This document shows positions 2,620 to 10,458 of a stretch of DNA of 10,458 nt, one piece after another (the first letter of the stretch is position 1; every line of letters starts with the position of its first letter). A program made the position numbers and the translations under genes. The notes under the pieces were generated by a model, which saw only the letters and a program-made list of their open reading frames with translations, had not been told where the DNA came from and made no database searches. The DNA comes from a virus (taxonomy: Duplodnaviria; Heunggongvirae; Uroviricota; Caudoviricetes), in the IMG/VR virus record IMGVR_UViG_2563366942_000013. One strand, given 5' to 3'.

Positions 2620-3210
2620 ATGTCTCGAATTTTTGCTTACTGTCGGATATCAACGCTGGATCAGACCACCGAAAATCAACGCCGGGAAATCGAAAGTGCA
2701 GGTTTTAAAATCAAACCTCAGCAAATAATCGAAGAACACATTAGCGGCTCAGCAGCAACCAGTGAGCGTCCTGGTTTTAACCGGTTGCTTGCTCGCCTGA
2801 AATGTGGTGATCAATTGATTGTGACAAAACTGGATCGCCTTGGTTGTAATGCAATGGATATCAGGAAAACAGTGGAACAACTGACCGAAACAGGTATCAG
2901 AGTGCATTGCTTAGCATTGGGGGGCATTGACCTGACCAGTCCAACAGGAAAAATGATGATGCAAGTAATTTCAGCAGTCGCTGAATTTGAACGAGACCTT
3001 TTACTTGAACGCACTCATTCCGGGATAGTAAGAGCCCGGGGCGCAGGGAAACGTTTTGGTCGACCACCTGTGTTAAATGAAGAACAGAAACAGGTGGTAT
3101 TCGAACGGATTAAGTCAGGTGTAAGTATAAGTGCCATTGCCCGGGAATTCAAAACCTCGCGGCAAACCATTTTAAGAGCCAAAGCAAAACTTCAGACACC
3201 TGACATATAA
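2620..3210 (+). CDS. pinQ: Serine recombinase / DNA invertase (Pin/Gin/Hin/Cin family)
   Basis: 196 aa; N-terminal resolvase/invertase catalytic motifs (YCRISTLDQ with active-site Ser, [10 protein letters not shown]) and C-terminal helix-turn-helix ([18 protein letters not shown]). Size and context match PinQ/PinR of Qin/Rac-type prophages. Confidence 0.9.
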
Positions 3211-3307: not shown

Positions 3308-3427
3308 CTACGGCAGTGCTGGCCATTCAATATCCTGTGCAGTTGACGTATCAACACGGTTCAGCAACACCCGATACTTCTTCCAGGCTTCCCGCAACGA
3401 GGTTTCTTCCTCCGTTGCATATACAGC
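3308..3427 (-). pseudogene. 3-prime remnant (39 codons) of a tail fibre assembly gene (tfa)
   Basis: Minus-strand frame translates [39 protein letters not shown] then stop (3308-3310); this matches the conserved Tfa C-terminal motif ([16 protein letters not shown]...IEWP) as recalled from lambda Tfa. An in-frame TGA lies immediately upstream (3428-3430) and there is no start codon. Confidence 0.6.
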
Positions 3428-3428
3428 T

Positions 3429-3431
3429 CAC
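3429..3431. repeat. Target-site duplication (CAC), left copy
   Basis: CAC immediately outside both IS termini (3429-3431 and 4742-4744); 3-bp duplications are typical of IS3-family transposition. Confidence 0.6.
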
Positions 3432-3455
3432 TGAACCGCCCCGGGTTTCCTGGAG
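3432..3455. repeat. IS terminal inverted repeat (orfB-proximal end)
   Basis: TGAACCGCCCCGGGTTTCCTGGAG; partner at 4718-4741 in inverted orientation. Confidence 0.8.
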
Positions 3456-3473
3456 AGTATTTTATCTGTGAAC

Positions 3474-4364
3474 TCAGGCTGCCAGATCATCGTTTCCGAT
3501 GGAAGCATAATAAGCTTTTTCTGCTTCTGCCGGAGGAGTATGGCCCAGCCTTTCCAGCAATCGTCGATTGTTATACCAGTCCACCCACGTGAGTGTGGCC
3601 AGTTCCACTTCTGCACGGTTTTTCCAGCTCTTACGGTGTATTACCTCCGCTTTGTAAAGACCATTGATGCTCTCCGCCATCGCGTTGTCATACGAGTCGC
3701 CTGTACTTCCTGTTGATGCCAGTAATCCGGCTTCCTTAAGCCGCTGTGTGTAGGCCAGCGATACATACTGAGAACCTTTATCACTGTGATGGACCGTGCC
3801 GGACGGTCGACGGGCCCATAACGCCTGCTCCAGTGCATCCAGCACGAATGTCGTCTCCATGGACGATGAGACCCGCCACCCCACAATGTATCCGGCAAAC
3901 ACATCAATGATGAACGCCACATAGACGAAGCCCTGCCATGTGCTGACGTAAGTAAAATCAGCCACCCACAGCTGGTCAGGTCGTTCTGCCACGAACTGAC
4001 GGTTTACGCGGTCGCCTGCGGCAACGGCTTTCCGGCTGATGGTCGTACGGACCTTTTTACCCCGGAGAACACCGGCAAGTCCCATAACCGCCATGAGACG
4101 TGCCACAGTGCATCTGGCCACTCTGATACCTTCCCGTAACAACTGACGCCAGACTTTACGCACACCGTATACCTTGTGATTTTCATCGTATACGCGCTGT
4201 ATCTCTTTCTTCAGCCAGTCATCGCGCTGCGCACGGGCACTGCGTTTATCCGGATGATGTCGCTGTTGCTGACAGTGGTAATACGTTGACGGGGCAATAT
4301 GCAGTTCGCTGCATAGCGGTCCGACCCCGTACTGCTCACGCAGCTTATCCAGCAGTGGCATCAT
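3474..4364 (-). CDS. IS3-family transposase OrfB (DDE catalytic domain, 296 aa), normally expressed as OrfAB fusion by -1 frameshift
   Basis: DDE-type motifs (WVADFTYV..., [25 protein letters not shown]); ATG overlaps the orfA stop (ATGA) in the -1 frame. Confidence 0.9.
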
Positions 4365-4372
4365 TTTTTCCA
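4361..4372 (-). other. Putative programmed -1 ribosomal frameshift window (A6 run at orfA/orfB overlap)
   Basis: Minus strand reads TGG AAA AAA TGA with orfB ATG overlapping the stop; the A-run is a plausible slippery site by analogy with other IS3-family elements. Exact heptamer not verified. Confidence 0.45.
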
Positions 4373-4687
4373 GAGGCGGTCGAACTCCGCCTTCGCAAAA
4401 TAAGCGGAAGCCTGGCGAAGGATATCGTTACTGCGGCGCAGTTCACGATTTTCACGCTCCAGCTCTTTCAGACGCTGACGTTCAGCGGTGGTGAGCCCTC
4501 CATCACCGCCCCCGGTATCCCGCTCATGCTGGCGAACCCAGACACGCAGAGTCTCCGGCGTACAGCCAATCTTTGGAGCAATGGAACAAATTGTCGCCCA
4601 TTGTGAGTCATATTCGCCCTGACTTTCCAGAACCATACGGACTGCCCGTTGACGGACTTCAGGGGAAAAACGAGTATTTTTAGTCAT
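4361..4687 (-). CDS. IS3-family transposase OrfA (DNA-binding subunit, 108 aa)
   Basis: [53 protein letters not shown]... (HTH plus leucine-zipper-like region), recalled as characteristic of IS629/IS1203 OrfA. Confidence 0.9.
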
Positions 4688-4717
4688 CCTGTTTACCTCT
4701 TTCTCAGGAAGTTTAGT

Positions 4718-4741
4718 CTCCAGGATTCCCGGGGCGGTTCA
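4718..4741. repeat. IS terminal inverted repeat (orfA-proximal end)
   Basis: CTCCAGGATTCCCGGGGCGGTTCA, reverse complement of the 3432-3455 repeat with 2 mismatches. Confidence 0.8.
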
Positions 4742-4750: not shown

Positions 4751-5044
4751 TCACCCACGATTAACCAACAGCCAGACCAGCAGACACGCCACCACCGGCA
4801 CAGCAAAATCCATCAGGCTTGCCACATCCCACGCACGCGGATCAAAACCGCCCCACCACGGCATATTCATACGCTTGCCATGCCCGAACATTTCAATCCA
4901 GCGATATTCTGCCTGGGTATGTTCACGCGCAATGAAGAACGTACAACCAGCTATCGCCCCGTAAGCCCAGTTTCCGGTAAAAAGACCAACCAGTACCTGC
5001 GCAGCCACAGCACAAAGTGCATGAAGGAAAGGTGTTATATCCAT
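4751..5044 (-). CDS. Small integral membrane protein of unknown function (97 aa)
   Basis: Perfect Shine-Dalgarno AGGAGG 4 nt upstream of ATG (reverse complement of 5049-5054); two to three hydrophobic segments (FLHALCAVAAQVLVGLF, FAVPVVACLLVWLLV). Last gene of the tight minus-strand operon; stop is 6 bp from the IS target duplication. Confidence 0.55.
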   Translation of the reverse strand: MDITPFLHALCAVAAQVLVGLFTGNWAYGAIAGCTFFIAREHTQAEYRWIEMFGHGKRMNMPWWGGFDPRAWDVASLMDFAVPVVACLLVWLLVNRG

Positions 5045-5054
5045 TACGCCTCCT

Positions 5055-5759
5055 TTATCCGATATCGCTTCGGGAAACGGATAACAACTTTAATTCTGAC
5101 TCAAGTTCATCAACTCTTTCAGTCAGCTTCTGGATATGGTGAATCAGTGGAACAACCAGACGTTCGTACATTACACCTTCGGCAACAAGGCCATTGCTGG
5201 AAATGGTTTCCGGTGCATCATCTTCGTTGGCTGGTCGCCAGTGAACAAACTGAGGGGCAATTTCTCCAACTTCCTCGGCAATCAATCCATAGAATCCCCA
5301 GTCACGCCTGTCATTTTCGCATTGCGACCTGTACCACACAGGGCGCATCCTGAAAATGAGATCGGCGTGCTCTGAATCTATCGTCTCTACTGAATGTTTA
5401 TAGCGGATAGACGATGTTGACCGCAGCACAGACGAAATTGCAGGGTCAGGATTAAGATAAAGATTTGCCGCCGCTGTAGTTGTGCCCAATCCCCATAAAT
5501 AAAACGCTTCACGGCCAGTCAGCGGGTAAAAATCTCCGCCATAACGACCACTTTCCAGATCGTTCACTTCCACTTTGTTTTTCAGCTTATTATCAACTTC
5601 AGTTTTTGTGTATCTGGTGCTGATATCCTGCTTTGCACTGGCCATATCAGTCTGAAGCGTTGATACTTTTCCGTTAATAGAGGAAATATCTTCCTTTGCT
5701 TTACTGACATCTCCCTTCAGCGTGGTGATGTCTCCCGGAATTACTGTTGATGTAGCCAT
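5055..5759 (-). CDS. Short fibre-like protein: N-terminal coiled-coil region plus C-terminal peptidase-S74-type intramolecular chaperone domain (234 aa)
   Basis: GAGG Shine-Dalgarno 7 nt upstream. C-terminal half matches the S74 chaperone-domain pattern as recalled: S-S-I-R-Y-K-H-S-V (Ser116/Lys121 spacing like S-D-x-R-L-K-x-N-I), RPVWYRSQ, GFYGLIAEEVGEIAPQFV, VPLIHHIQKLTERVDELESEL. N-terminal heptad-like repeats (DITTLKGDVSKAKEDISSINGKVSTLQTDMASAKQDIS). Confidence 0.7.
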   Translation of the reverse strand: MATSTVIPGDITTLKGDVSKAKEDISSINGKVSTLQTDMASAKQDISTRYTKTEVDNKLKNKVEVNDLESGRYGGDFYPLTGREAFYLWGLGTTTAAANLYLNPDPAISSVLRSTSSIRYKHSVETIDSEHADLIFRMRPVWYRSQCENDRRDWGFYGLIAEEVGEIAPQFVHWRPANEDDAPETISSNGLVAEGVMYERLVVPLIHHIQKLTERVDELESELKLLSVSRSDIG

Positions 5760-5768
5760 TTCTCTACC

Positions 5769-6050
5769 TCACATCCAGCCACGAAGTTGATGCTCAACAG
5801 CAACCGCGTATTCATCGAATAATGACGATATTTGCGTATCCTTAATAATGCGCACGTTTACAAAATATCCATCTTCCTTAACACATACCGGTTCGCCATC
5901 TTCAGTCAGCTCTCCGGTTTCTTTGTACACGTTACCTATCACATCAATCAGAATATCATCCTGCATCGACTCGTCATTATAATAGCCAATACTTCCCATA
6001 AAGGCCGAAAAGTCGGCCCTGTCGGCAAATTTGAGTGTTAAATCTTTCAT
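5769..6050 (-). CDS. Hypothetical acidic protein (93 aa); possible fibre chaperone or accessory protein
   Basis: ATG overlaps the upstream stop (TAATG) indicating translational coupling; GGGGAG about 8 nt upstream. No recognisable motif; highly acidic. Confidence 0.5.
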   Translation of the reverse strand: MKDLTLKFADRADFSAFMGSIGYYNDESMQDDILIDVIGNVYKETGELTEDGEPVCVKEDGYFVNVRIIKDTQISSLFDEYAVAVEHQLRGWM

Positions 6051-6913
6051 TAGATTGACTCCCCCATCTGAGCATCAGTCAATGCCTTGTGCCAAATACG
6101 CAGATTTCGAACGTGTCCAAATAGGTGACGGTTGCCGGATGATGATTGACCACCAATATTAATGAAGCCTCCTGTATATTTGTGTTTTTTATAAGGAGAA
6201 ACTACCTTAGCACCAATATTACCGTTAACCACAACACACAATTCTCGACTTTCTGTGAATCTAAAGCCGATAATGCTTTTTCTCTCTGGTCGTTCTATAA
6301 CGCTTTTATATTCTATTTTAGTGCCTTTACCATTTGTAATGATTGCGCGTGCTCCCAAAGATGTATACCCCAAATACATATAACTTTCATCTGCAATTTC
6401 AGTTGTATCTCCCGTAGTGGAAATATTAAGAATACGTGCGCTACCTTCTTTGTTTGGCGATTCATCCCAATTGGTATTAACTTCTGCTAATGAACTAATA
6501 GCGGGATTGCACCAATTTAGAGAAATGGGGACCGTTACAATATCGCTGGCGCGTGTTACAGGGGATGCGCCTGTTATAATAAACGATGAAGCGCATGCCC
6601 CACCTTCAACTTGAGGGGTCGCAATATAAATATAATCATCCGCGCCAGTGCCCACTCCTTTTGCCGGGGCATACTGAACCATTCCACCTATCATATTTTC
6701 TGTATCAAGTGCCTTAATTGTCGCCTCAAAAAAGATCCATTTGCTTGCTTCATCTTTAACAGCCCTTGCAGTAATGCGATTAGCGGCACCACCCGTCTTA
6801 TCAATAGATAAATCTGTCGTATTTAAGTAAGCGTCACCTAAGAATGTGTAGGTAGAACCATCATAGTTTTCAAATCGTAATCGGCATCTTAAATTTGGAG
6901 TGCCACTTTGCAC
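6050..6913 (-). CDS. LamG/concanavalin-A-like lectin-domain protein; probably the distal receptor-binding part of the side tail fibre (287 codons, GTG-initiated as drawn)
   Basis: C-terminus shows LamG-type pattern (VVVNGNIGAKVV...GGFINIGGQSSSGNRHLFGHVRNLRIWHKALTDAQM). In the same frame as stf, separated by a single TGA (6941-6943) and 9 sense codons; no ATG and only a weak RBS at the GTG. Confidence 0.6.
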   Translation of the reverse strand: MQSGTPNLRCRLRFENYDGSTYTFLGDAYLNTTDLSIDKTGGAANRITARAVKDEASKWIFFEATIKALDTENMIGGMVQYAPAKGVGTGADDYIYIATPQVEGGACASSFIITGASPVTRASDIVTVPISLNWCNPAISSLAEVNTNWDESPNKEGSARILNISTTGDTTEIADESYMYLGYTSLGARAIITNGKGTKIEYKSVIERPERKSIIGFRFTESRELCVVVNGNIGAKVVSPYKKHKYTGGFINIGGQSSSGNRHLFGHVRNLRIWHKALTDAQMGESI

Positions 6914-6940
6914 CCTGCATGATATGGTTACATACTTTTC

Positions 6941-8455
6941 TCAGCCTGTTACATCAAAACCTTTACTGCCGGAAACGGTTACTATGTTAATCGCTGAAAT
7001 TTGCCCTACCATTTCTGGTTTTAATGTAAATTTTGCGTACTGGAATCCGAAATCATCTACACCTGATGCACTTAAGATCATATTTGACGACTTGTTCCAT
7101 TTAGTCGGATTTGTTGAATTGATTAGCAGGTTAGTTCTTTGCCCCTCAATAAGCAGGCCATCACGTTCAAATCGTGGCTCGTCAATGGCAGCCTCTGTCA
7201 GCACACCAGATTTATTAATGTAAGTTGCTTTCGATGCGCGTTTAAACTTTACAATCTTGTCGCCAGGCATTGTTATTTCATCGTCGCCAATAACAATTTT
7301 TTTATATGATGGCGAAAAGCCCGTAATCATATCCAGTGAATCATTAAACGGTATCCACACATCAGGCAGTGGCTGTAAGACATATTTATACGGCTCTGCT
7401 GCCTGACTTGCATACTCTCTGGCTGCGTCTTCACTTGCTTTAGCTGCTGTCTGGCTTGCTGCCGATGCTTTCGCCGAGTTCGCCGCTGCAGTCTCGCTTG
7501 TCTTTGCATTGGTTTCACTGGTTTTTGCTGCTTTTTGACTGTTGGCTGATGCAGTGGCAGAAGCAGCCGCCGCGCTTGCAGAACTGGCTGCGGCACTCTC
7601 GCTTTGGGCCGCTGCATCCTGACTGCTTTTCGCCGCAGTTTCACTGGCTTTGGCATTCGTTTCGCTGGTCTTCGCTGCCGTCTGGCTGGACTTTGCGTTA
7701 GTTTCACTCGTCTTCGCAGCTTTCTGGCTGTTAGCCGCAGCAGTTGCTGATCCAGCTGCTGAAGTCGCAGAACCGGCTGCCGCGCTCTCGCTTTGGGCTG
7801 CTGAAACCTGGCTGTTTTTTGCTGCAGTTTCACTGGCTTTAGCATTCGTTTCGCTGGTCTTCGCTGCCGTCTGGCTGGACTTTGCGTTGGTTTCGCTTGT
7901 CGTTGCGGCTGTCTCGCTATTTTTCGCGTTGGTTTCTGATTTTTTAGCTGCTGTTGCGGAGTTTGCCGATGCAGTCTGCGAGGCCGCTGCCGCCTGTGCG
8001 CTGTTAGCTGCATTCGTTTCTGAGGTTTTCGCCGCGTTCTTCGATGATGCCGCTGCAGTTTCGGATTTCTTTGCCGCCGCTGCGCTCTGAGAGGCGGCTT
8101 CAGCGTTGCGTGCCGCTTCTTCCACCATTTCCTCAAAACGACGCAATGCCTCCGGCATGACATCATCTTCCGTCATGGCACCGAGAAAATCATTCAGCGT
8201 ACCTGGTCTGGAACCTTCATAGACGGTAATGGTTCCGGCATGTGAAGGCGGAAAACCTTCAACCAGCAGGGTGACGCTGTACTGGCCATACTCAACATCC
8301 ATGCTGTAACGCCCGGCTTCATCCGGATTTTCAGAGGCCACTGTGTTGACCAGTACCGTGGTGCTGTTACGCTTTGCCTTCAGTTGAATAGTGCAGTTCT
8401 GTATTGGTTTTCCCGCACCATCTTTCAGCACACCTGAGATTTTTACTGCTGCCAT
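6941..8455 (-). CDS. stf: Side tail fibre protein Stf (lambda-like N-terminus, Ser/Ala/Thr-rich repeat region, distinct distal segment)
   Basis: MAAVKISGVLKDGAGKPIQNCTIQLKAKRNSTTVLVNTVASENPDEAGRYSMDVEYGQYSV... closely resembles the lambda/Rac Stf N-terminus as recalled. GGAG Shine-Dalgarno 5 nt upstream of ATG at 8455 (track start at GTG 8461 is probably an over-extension). Ends at TGA 6941-6943. Confidence 0.85.
   Translation of the reverse strand: MAAVKISGVLKDGAGKPIQNCTIQLKAKRNSTTVLVNTVASENPDEAGRYSMDVEYGQYSVTLLVEGFPPSHAGTITVYEGSRPGTLNDFLGAMTEDDVMPEALRRFEEMVEEAARNAEAASQSAAAAKKSETAAASSKNAAKTSETNAANSAQAAAASQTASANSATAAKKSETNAKNSETAATTSETNAKSSQTAAKTSETNAKASETAAKNSQVSAAQSESAAAGSATSAAGSATAAANSQKAAKTSETNAKSSQTAAKTSETNAKASETAAKSSQDAAAQSESAAASSASAAAASATASANSQKAAKTSETNAKTSETAAANSAKASAASQTAAKASEDAAREYASQAAEPYKYVLQPLPDVWIPFNDSLDMITGFSPSYKKIVIGDDEITMPGDKIVKFKRASKATYINKSGVLTEAAIDEPRFERDGLLIEGQRTNLLINSTNPTKWNKSSNMILSASGVDDFGFQYAKFTLKPEMVGQISAINIVTVSGSKGFDVTG
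7596..7973. repeat. Imperfect tandem direct repeats inside stf (189-bp spacing, about 115-bp conserved core, nested 42-bp/14-aa sub-repeats)
   Basis: CTCTCGCTTTGGGC... recurs at 7596 and 7785; protein shows repeated AAKTSETNAKxSxT units. More degenerate copies extend to about 7440-8060. Confidence 0.6.
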
Positions 8456-8463
8456 ATCCACTC

Positions 8464-8519: not shown

Positions 8520-9119
8520 TCAGAATTTATAACCGACACCAACGATGAAACCGTCAGTGCGCCAGTCACCACTGCCAGAACCTTCATAAGCAATATCAAT
8601 GGCCACGGATTCGGTCGGGTTAAACTGCACGCCAGCCCCCCACGCCAGAGACGTGTTGCTGTGGCGATCGTCATCACTTCCGGTCAGCACATCGTGCGTT
8701 TTCCCCTTGTTGTCAGTTACGCGGAGATAATCCCCGGAGAACGTCGAAACACGGCTGTAAGCCACACCTGCCATCGCATAAGCACTGAACCATTCATTCA
8801 CGCGTACAGATGGCCCCGCCATCATGCTGAACCAGCGGTTACGCACTGAATCTTCATGCCAGCGGGTATCGCTGTAATGCGTTTTTTGCTCACCTTTGGC
8901 ATTGGCATAACTGAATGACGTCACCAGCCCCAGCGTGTCCGTAAATTCATAACGGTATTTCACGTTAATGCCCTTCAGGTCATCACTGCCTGGCATATCA
9001 GTATGGGTTTGAAGATACCCGGCGCTTAGTGTGGACTGATGCTCTGCTGCGCTCGCTGACGTACCAGCAGCAACCAGCCAGACTACTGCGGACAGAATAA
9101 CAGCACATAATTTACGCAT
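8520..9119 (-). CDS. lom: Lom/Ail/PagC-family outer-membrane protein (prophage moron)
   Basis: 199 aa with signal peptide (MRKLCAVILSAVVWLVAAGTSASA) and C-terminus DIAYEGSGSGDWRTDGFIVGVGYKF matching lambda Lom as recalled; GAGAGG RBS upstream; location between J and stf as in lambda. Confidence 0.9.
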   Translation of the reverse strand: MRKLCAVILSAVVWLVAAGTSASAAEHQSTLSAGYLQTHTDMPGSDDLKGINVKYRYEFTDTLGLVTSFSYANAKGEQKTHYSDTRWHEDSVRNRWFSMMAGPSVRVNEWFSAYAMAGVAYSRVSTFSGDYLRVTDNKGKTHDVLTGSDDDRHSNTSLAWGAGVQFNPTESVAIDIAYEGSGSGDWRTDGFIVGVGYKF

Positions 9120-9186: not shown

Positions 9187-10458
9187 TCAGCTGATACTGA
9201 TGCCTGCGGTGGCTTTCTTCATCACCACAACCAGCAAATCGCTGATACTTGCTGTGGGATACCAGTCATTTACCAGCCATGCTGACACCGAAAACTCCAG
9301 CGTCATGTGACCGTGACCGGCAGGCATATCAATAACGCCACTGTAAATCAGCGTATTATCCAGCGCGGTACGGTTATAAATTTCAGCACCGTTTTTCCGC
9401 ACTATCAGACGGCATGAGGAGTAAATATCAGTATGCTCTCTCTCATGTTTAGCGCCGCTGAATGCCACCGCCGGAATAACAATCTGCCGGTCAAACGGCT
9501 GATCGTCATAAATCCTGACGGTAATGGTCCCTGATGGCCACCGTTCCGGTGCACGGGAGTCCCGGGGGAAAGCTTTGCCCACTGTTTTAACGAGATCGCC
9601 TTCAATCTGGTTCGCGGACAGTTTTCCCAGAACCCGGCAGTTCTCGTTAATCGTGACGTTGTTGAGCGTCCCGGAGTTCGCATTCACGTTACCGCTGATA
9701 TCGGCATTTTTCGCCGTCAGCCGCCCGTCCGGTGTCAGGGAAAATGCCGGAGGATTACCGCCGCTGGTAATGGTGGGAGCCGTCAGATATTTCAGGAACA
9801 CTTCGTTCATGAATATCTGATCGCCCTGCCCAACAAACATCGGCTTTGTGTTGCCATTCGCAGGATTAATCATCGCAATCCTGTCTGCCGCCAGCAGCAC
9901 CTGACTCTGCATGCCGTCAGGGGTGTTTTCAATACCGGCACCAATACCCGCGATATAAAGGCGTCCGTCCTGCATCTGCTGCAGCTTCACAGCCCACATG
10001 CTGTTCAGGTTATTATTTGTATCAACCTGAACCTTCTGTATCTGCTGGATCGCTGCACTCTGGTCTTCCAGTTTCTTATTGACGGTCTGCGTGATTTCAT
10101 TACTGACATCCGTGATGGACGTTCTGATTTCCGCCAGGTCAGGCGCAAGCTGACCGTTATCAATCTGCGTCCACAACTCCTGAGCCAGATGGGTTTTCCC
10201 TATCTCTCCTTTGAAAAAATCCAGATAGCCGGATGCATCATCACTCGGCTGGCCAACAGCCTCCACGAATGCCGATTTGCCAACGGTGTTCACACTGCGG
10301 ATGTAAAAATAATAATCATGGCCCGGCTTGATATTGATACTGGCAGCTATCCAGTACAGCGCCGTGCCAAGATAGCGGGCTGTGGTTTCAACCTGCCTGA
10401 TATCCGCAATCCGCTTTTCCGAGAACCAGAACTCAAACTGTACCGTCGGATCATAAAC
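9187..10458 (-). CDS. J: Tail tip / host specificity protein J (central tail fibre), C-terminal portion; 5-prime end lies beyond the window
   Basis: Frame is open from the window edge through 9187. Translation ([19 protein letters not shown]..., [39 protein letters not shown], ...DMPAGHG...) matches the lambda J C-terminal region as recalled. Track start at 10293 is an internal GTG. Confidence 0.9.

Follow-up and report, generated by a model that had tools for sequence, protein, structure and literature searches.

The nearest described counterpart of the locus presented here is that of the Tequintavirus IrisVonRoten (Bas32), whose products Gp22, Gp23 and Gp24 are encoded in the same three-gene order, and in which Gp24 was modelled as a distal fibre, equipped with a predicted intramolecular chaperone domain (ICD), on the proximal Gp22 (Humolli et al. 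2025, PMC11990801, Fig 12B). In the same model a galectin-like domain protrudes from Gp22 (PMC11990801). Phages DT57C and DT571/2 with their fibre proteins LtfA and LtfB likewise possess an S74-ended second fibre, which is attached via the first one by its N-terminus. For DT57C it was shown genetically that LtfB is mounted through LtfA by the N-terminus of LtfB, and LtfA was found to be unstable without LtfB (Golomidova 2016, PMC4728585); a 92-aa gene at the LtfA/LtfB locus is not mentioned in that publication (PMC4728585). In a fibre atlas preprint, typical members of class TC7 begin with a coiled coil and end in an S74 domain, and in the mature fibre of another atlas class the S74 domain was without cryo-EM density (bioRxiv 10.1101/2024.10.28.620165). 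The likeness of the protein studied here to TC7 is one of class description, the TC7 examples coming from other BASEL phages. Domains of the same fold, in the same C-terminal position and with an S-x4-K pair, are known from endosialidase K1F (3gw6), GA-1 gp12 (3gud), T5 pb1 and the ICA domain of MyRF (7dc3), where they cap long spikes and fibres or a transcription factor, whereas the ICD dealt with here follows just 115 residues. Regarding the short allele and its orthologues in T1-like phages, no experiment, genetics or virion proteomics was found in the literature.

In the present study a stretch of 10,458 nucleotides, hereafter the window, was analysed as a whole. It comprises the terminal part of a lambdoid prophage that occupies the E. 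coli ydfJ (Qin) site, and the closest genome, that of E. coli strain CE10, matches it with 97.7% identity across 90% of its length. On the minus strand the C-terminus of J, lom, stf, orf93, the gene of a 234-aa protein with an S74 domain and orf97 succeed one another, and beyond orf97 an IS3-family element, a remnant of tfa, pin, ydfK and a truncated ydfJ are located. The operon of stf, orf93, the S74 gene and orf97 is tight: the stop of stf and the start of orf93 overlap as TGATG, and the next two junctions (orf93/S74 gene and S74 gene/orf97) comprise 9-10 nt, each with a Shine-Dalgarno sequence. The features of this region are the following.

9187-10293, minus strand: J, C-terminus only
8520-9119, minus strand: lom
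6050-8461, minus strand: stf, proximal side tail fibre, with a phage_tail_N domain, an Ala-rich shaft and a lectin-like C-terminal domain (Pfam and NCBIfam)
6941-6943, minus strand: in-frame TGA breaking stf, crossed by a single-frame tblastn match
6050-7380, minus strand: C-terminal module of Stf, residues about 361-803, a mosaic common to four phage groups
5769-6050, minus strand: orf93, the conserved 92/93-aa partner gene (phrog_1361), between the proximal and the putative distal fibre gene
5767-5770, minus strand: GAGG Shine-Dalgarno sequence of the 234-aa gene, 8-11 nt upstream of its ATG and overlapping the TGA stop of orf93
5055-5759, minus strand: gene of the putative distal fibre subunit, stop codon included, with ATG start, 234 aa and a precursor of 26.2 kDa (open reading frame list and Pfam S74 match)
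4751-5044, minus strand: orf97, 97 aa, last operon gene in lambdoid versions (phrog_1443), with a strong AGGAGG Shine-Dalgarno sequence
3432-4741: IS3-family element of 1,310 bp, with imperfect 41-nt terminal inverted repeats at 3432-3472 and 4701-4741
about 3308-3418: tfa remnant, separated from orf97 by the IS3-family element
2620-3210, plus strand: pin, an intact Pin/Hin-type invertase gene beside the tfa remnant

In CE10 the same kind of IS element lies inside pin and not beside orf97, and because the positions differ, the insertions in the window and in CE10 are regarded as independent.

Compared with IrisVonRoten, Stf of the window shares 44% identity with Gp22 (E=1.6e-180), orf93 shares 38% with Gp23, and the ICD of the 234-aa protein shares 27% with the C-terminus of Gp24. 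Moreover, Gp24 opens with MVTKTVIPTDITKLK, which is the same anchor motif as in the window protein, but differs from the latter in its length of 574 aa and its two receptor-binding domains (T-shaped). True orthologues of the 234-aa protein with the same neighbours are bas05_0029 of PeterMerian and bas06_0035 of KarlJaspers; such T1-like orthologues differ in that they possess two fewer stalk heptads, reside in virulent phages and lack orf97 in the modules inspected. As to DT57C, the ICD of LtfA (8hqz) is the best PDB sequence match to the window ICD, whereas LtfB differs in having a phiEco32 gp15-like N-terminal motif and in being much longer than the window protein.

From these comparisons a portable module can be defined, consisting of a lectin-headed proximal fibre, a 92/93-aa protein and an anchored, probably distal fibre, and distributed over four siphophage groups and about 14% of complete E. 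coli genomes. Gene 1 encodes the long proximal fibre, the N-terminus of which is specific to the phage family and the C-terminal module of which, with a lectin-like (GTA_spike_fiber / LamG-type) head, is shared; gene 2 encodes the 92/93-aa protein and gene 3 the S74 protein, which was third in every locus inspected. Besides the window, another 10 phage loci showed this order, belonging to the lambdoid phages (among the viable ones PhiR49_1 and IdasGreatGrand), the Drexlerviridae (the T1-like PeterMerian and KarlJaspers), the Queuovirinae (ESCO3, JenP2, KurtStettler) and Tequintavirus (the T5-like IrisVonRoten). The proteins of the third position, or slot 3, vary in length from 225-234 aa in the window and the T1-like phages over 294 aa in PhiR47_1 and 346-351 aa in Tritos, JenP2 and ESCO3 to 510 aa in KurtStettler and 574 aa in IrisVonRoten Gp24, and all of them share the N-terminal anchor motif and Peptidase_S74. 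Longer alleles insert an extra globular region of 150-400 residues between stalk and ICD. The window protein has only about 50 residues (66-115) there and no recognisable receptor-binding domain, for which reason we classify it as a minimal form of the Gp24 type. An earlier note on this DNA, made from its letters, had suggested a minimal accessory fibre, and this suggestion gains support from a slot and an anchor that are common to fibres of 294-574 aa, including Gp24 as a published distal fibre. Judged by the aligned loci, slot 3 shows allelic replacement. The slot is even empty in some viable lambdoid phages with stf, orf92 and orf97 (Lambda_4B5), so that the distal subunit is dispensable or optional.

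In the Salmonella phage VSe12 a 277-aa 'tail fiber protein' is annotated at 3314-4147, after the 92-aa gene. It resembles IrisVonRoten Gp24 from about residue 44 of the latter onwards, like an internal piece of such a protein, and has neither the anchor motif nor S74, and hence truncation of the gene or mis-annotation of its start is probable.

The 234-aa protein itself is composed as follows.

5706-5759, minus strand: N-terminal anchor motif, residues 1-18, MATSTVIPGDITTLKGDV, conserved across slot-3 proteins
5565-5732, minus strand: heptad-repeat (trimeric-type) coiled-coil stalk, residues 10-65, about 8 heptads (heptad register and AlphaFold helix)
5415-5564, minus strand: small tip segment, residues 66-115, the C-terminal end if cleavage occurs
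5058-5414, minus strand: intramolecular chaperone / peptidase S74 domain, residues 116-234 (Pfam, PDB alignments, AlphaFold and Foldseek)
5412-5414, minus strand: codon of Ser116, catalytic pair
5397-5399, minus strand: codon of Lys121, catalytic pair

The presence of a genuine S74/ICD domain with the pair Ser116/Lys121 is confirmed. In Pfam, Peptidase_S74 (PF13884) matched residues 116-172 (E=4.7e-6), and the 27.2 bits of this match exceed the gathering score of 22. S116 and K121 sit at the start of the domain in VLRSTS-S116-SIRY-K121, with S-x4-K spacing, and in phmmer searches against PDB sequences TSSIRYK was aligned with TSGIEYK of DT57C LtfA (8hqz_d, E=1.2e-7) and the two residues also with S587 and K592 of the MyRF ICA domain (7dc3). 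All members of a family alignment of 50 sequences retain K121, and S116 is conserved there to at least 90%; both are invariant in two further family alignments. Residues 120-232 reached a pLDDT of 84-96 in the AlphaFold2 monomer model, in which, according to Foldseek, the ICD fold including its long C-terminal helix is recovered: the only meaningful matches in PDB were MyRF ICA (7dc3, E=1e-5, probability 1.0) and the ICDs of GA-1 gp12 (3gud) and endoNF (3gw6). The domain forms the extreme C-terminus of the protein, and a position mostly at or near the C-terminus was also noticed for the S74 match in the best 150 of 3,583 representatives, obtained at E<=0.001 from a homologue search of 1.84 billion representatives. 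Thus, the chaperone domain, the catalytic dyad with its numbering, and the Pfam match that had been named as a check in the earlier note all hold, as does the coiled-coil-like part it had seen upstream, which corresponds to the heptads of residues 10-65.

In these heptads position 2 is occupied by I, V or M in the first six, position 5 mostly by L, A or I, and a helix is modelled confidently over residues 11-47 (pLDDT 82-91, AlphaFold2 monomer model). The stalk is weakly similar to the coiled coil of the gp26 tail needle (4lin) and to residues 446-506 of LtfA. Some orthologues differ in length by whole heptads, with two 7-residue gaps against PeterMerian and 234 versus 227 aa for P0003. The anchor follows the consensus M(A/V)TxT(V/I)IPxDIxxLKxDV across slot-3 proteins; M1, T3, T5, I7, P8, D10, I11, L14, K15 and V18 are invariant in those of 225-510 aa from lambdoid, T1-like, Nonagvirus and Seuratvirus phages. 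This stretch is of low entropy and matches the N-termini of phrog_4563 and phrog_19752. Among copies of the short allele, conservation of the anchor (residues 1-13) and of the tip (79-117) equals that of the ICD core, and the stalk is variable. No Pfam domain was detected within residues 66-115, residues 59-111 are of low confidence in the AlphaFold2 monomer model, and the conservation profile of the mature part contains no hypervariable patch such as a receptor-binding tip would be expected to show.

How unusual such a short protein is can be judged from 114 Met-starting S74 representatives, in which a median of about 370 aa precedes the catalytic Ser. The 115 aa of the 234-aa protein correspond to about the 6th percentile, and 120 aa or fewer were counted in 7 of the 114. 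The earlier note had called the protein unusually short; its rank in this sample agrees with that, but the wording overstates the rarity, because the allele is widespread, conserved and already annotated. Full-length copies were recorded in 740 of 5,426 complete E. coli genomes (~14%), BLR(DE3) among them, 2,928 sequences fall into its cluster at 90% identity, and RefSeq labels the product 'tail fiber domain-containing protein'. Lambdoid orthologues of 227-234 aa with 92-97% identity occur in PhiR49_1, IdasGreatGrand and PhiR55_1, and about 40 T1-like phages (Drexlerviridae) possess orthologues of 225-231 aa with 57-62% identity over >90% of the length; overall, orthologues in viable lambdoid and T1-like phages range from 221 to 269 aa. 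Pairwise dN/dS lies at 0.02-0.21 in the mature half and in the chaperone half alike, and the gene is under purifying selection. Being common and already annotated, it is ordinary rather than surprising. The protein is a further example of a known architecture, and the biological advance is incremental, as publications on longer alleles already contain both this architecture and the two-part fibre model.

In the window the presumed partner is interrupted. The halves of stf are ORFs of 506 and 287 aa, which match intact Stf proteins of 731-812 aa in one frame, and the match to phrog_1419 is divided over both. Owing to the single in-frame TGA, and barring read-through of that codon, stf is considered a pseudogene here, which leaves the S74 protein without an intact partner in this window; the TGA and the IS element beside the operon together indicate that the side-fibre apparatus of the prophage is probably defective. 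Conservation along Stf changes sharply across phage groups: it amounts to 78-100% over residues 361-440, gives way to hypervariability in residues 641-760 (11-42% identity) and returns in the last 40 residues, a pattern that fits a lectin head with specificity-setting loops.

As a candidate docking site for the S74 protein, the last 40 residues of Stf (RIGGQ..G.RHLFGH.RN.RIWHK.LTD) were considered and rejected as unsupported: they are equally conserved in Lambda_4B5, which is without a distal fibre, and resemble the usual end of a LamG-type fold.

Taken together, we favour the reading that the gene probably encodes the distal (second) subunit of a two-part side or lateral tail fibre, in its shortest known form. 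Three precursor chains of 26 kDa would be gathered by the C-terminal S74 domain (residues 116-234), which, acting in cis, would nucleate the folding of the tip (66-115) and zip up the heptad stalk (10-65). Ser116, activated by Lys121, would then cut the chain, so that a chaperone fragment of a predicted 13.8 kDa is freed and an N-terminal mature chain of 12.4 kDa stays behind as part of a trimeric stalk a few nanometres long. By its N-terminal peptide (MATSTVIPxDIxxLKxDV) this stub would be anchored to the distal end of Stf, beside the variable lectin-like domain. By analogy with the fibres described above, we infer both autoproteolytic release and ICD-dependent trimerisation; docking on Stf and attachment to the virion are likewise presumed. 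Since no hypervariable patch was found and the slot is optional, the proposal leans towards a conserved target or a structural cap. For side fibres of lambda-like, T1-like and T5-like phages, the conserved 18-residue anchor, combined with an S74 cassette acting in cis, could offer phage engineering a compact scaffold on which receptor-binding domains are swapped.

A narrower version of this proposal, which we advance tentatively and consider possible rather than probable, regards the 115-residue mature product as a 'blank' distal subunit without a receptor-binding domain, which would both plug and stabilise the distal-fibre socket of Stf while the lectin domain of Stf does the binding. It finds a parallel in DT57C LtfA with its instability in the absence of LtfB. 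If it were true, the slot would be a plug-and-play socket that, across phage populations, is either empty as in Lambda_4B5, filled by a dummy as in this allele, or occupied by receptor binders of 294-574 aa.

The main competitor of a structural distal subunit is an assembly chaperone that acts in trans and outside the virion, replacing lambda Tfa and helping Stf or its lectin domain to fold. Such a role is unlikely in our judgement, even though the S74 gene occupies the position of tfa in lambda-type loci, with a tfa remnant following the module, and though the protein is small and its mature part is devoid of a hypervariable, receptor-binding-like patch. The BASEL annotation of the T1-like orthologues, 'putative lateral tail fiber chaperone', also points in this direction, but appears to stem from the Pfam name 'chaperone of endosialidase', and no paper testing it was found. 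A chaperone in trans is further opposed by the conserved anchor and the heptad stalk, as well as by a slot and a motif held in common with proteins of 294-574 aa that have obvious globular fibre domains. Nor does the S74 protein co-vary with Stf: in comparison with IdasGreatGrand, identity is 42% over the final 150 residues of Stf and 94-96% for the S74 protein, and phages with the same type of Stf do without the S74 protein. The S74 domains of endosialidase and of T5 fibres act in cis on their own chain, which likewise counts against action in trans. The chaperone label, carried by dozens of T1-like and Queuovirinae genomes, is hence likely to be a misnomer for what is most probably a structural distal fibre subunit.

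Far less probable is that the ORF is what a decaying prophage has kept of a formerly long tail fibre gene, namely its C-terminal end. This would agree with the damage to the prophage by the stf nonsense codon and the adjacent IS element, and with the coverage of only positions 1147-1384 (the last 238) of the 1385-position family phrog_3299. A cassette of tip and ICD, starting at about residue 45, indeed recurs with 57-64% identity at the end of one-piece Stf proteins with a phage_tail_N start and also terminates P2-type fibres, the host fibres measuring 539-1243 aa. However, orthologues that are closely similar in length (225-234 aa) and begin alike are found in viable phages of two families, the gene possesses a Shine-Dalgarno sequence of its own and a conserved N-terminal motif that is absent from the long fibres, and the dN/dS of the N-terminal half falls well short of 1. 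Given intact orthologues in plaque-forming phages, degeneration from a longer gene is effectively refuted.

Equally refuted in effect, and the least probable of all, is an alternative fibre C-terminus flipped by Pin in the manner of the Mu G and e14 P segments, which the intact pin and the tfa remnant nearby might bring to mind: the S74 gene is co-oriented with stf and possesses a start codon and a Shine-Dalgarno sequence of its own, pin in the window no longer has beside it any invertible fibre segment bounded by inverted repeats, the only repeats of this kind around the S74 gene being the IS ends and 16-17-nt chance matches, and T1-like loci carry the module without an invertase gene nearby.

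Beside the proposed distal subunit, the small neighbours deserve mention. The family of orf93 comprises 181 phage records, which include rV5-like myophages in addition to siphophages of the lambdoid, T1-like, T5-like and Queuovirinae groups, and the gene invariably follows directly on that of a lectin-headed fibre, also in loci that lack a distal fibre gene downstream. Its confident AlphaFold model (pLDDT 85) yielded no informative fold match, and connector or chaperone for the lectin head are candidate roles. Neither orf93 nor the S74 protein matched a chaperone family, including those of the Tfa type (lambda Tfa / Mu U / T4 gp38, gp57A), in Pfam and NCBIfam. A read-through fusing orf93 to the S74 fibre was considered and discarded on comparison of 11 loci: both genes share the same frame in 10 of them, but KarlJaspers breaks the frame, the stop codon varies, being TGA in lambdoid phages and ESCO3 and TAA elsewhere, and the spacer of 9 or 12 nt merely houses the Shine-Dalgarno sequence. 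According to its hydropathy profile, the small orf97 product carries a hydrophobic segment towards either terminus (about residues 1-35 and 73-95), and it may be an accessory membrane protein of the prophage. The shaft of Stf (7450-8170) is made up of Ala/Ser/Thr-rich repeats of the SETNAK type with an extreme AT skew (-0.58), and these repeats give rise to long spurious ORFs on both strands, for instance at 7327-8166 and 7650-8090.
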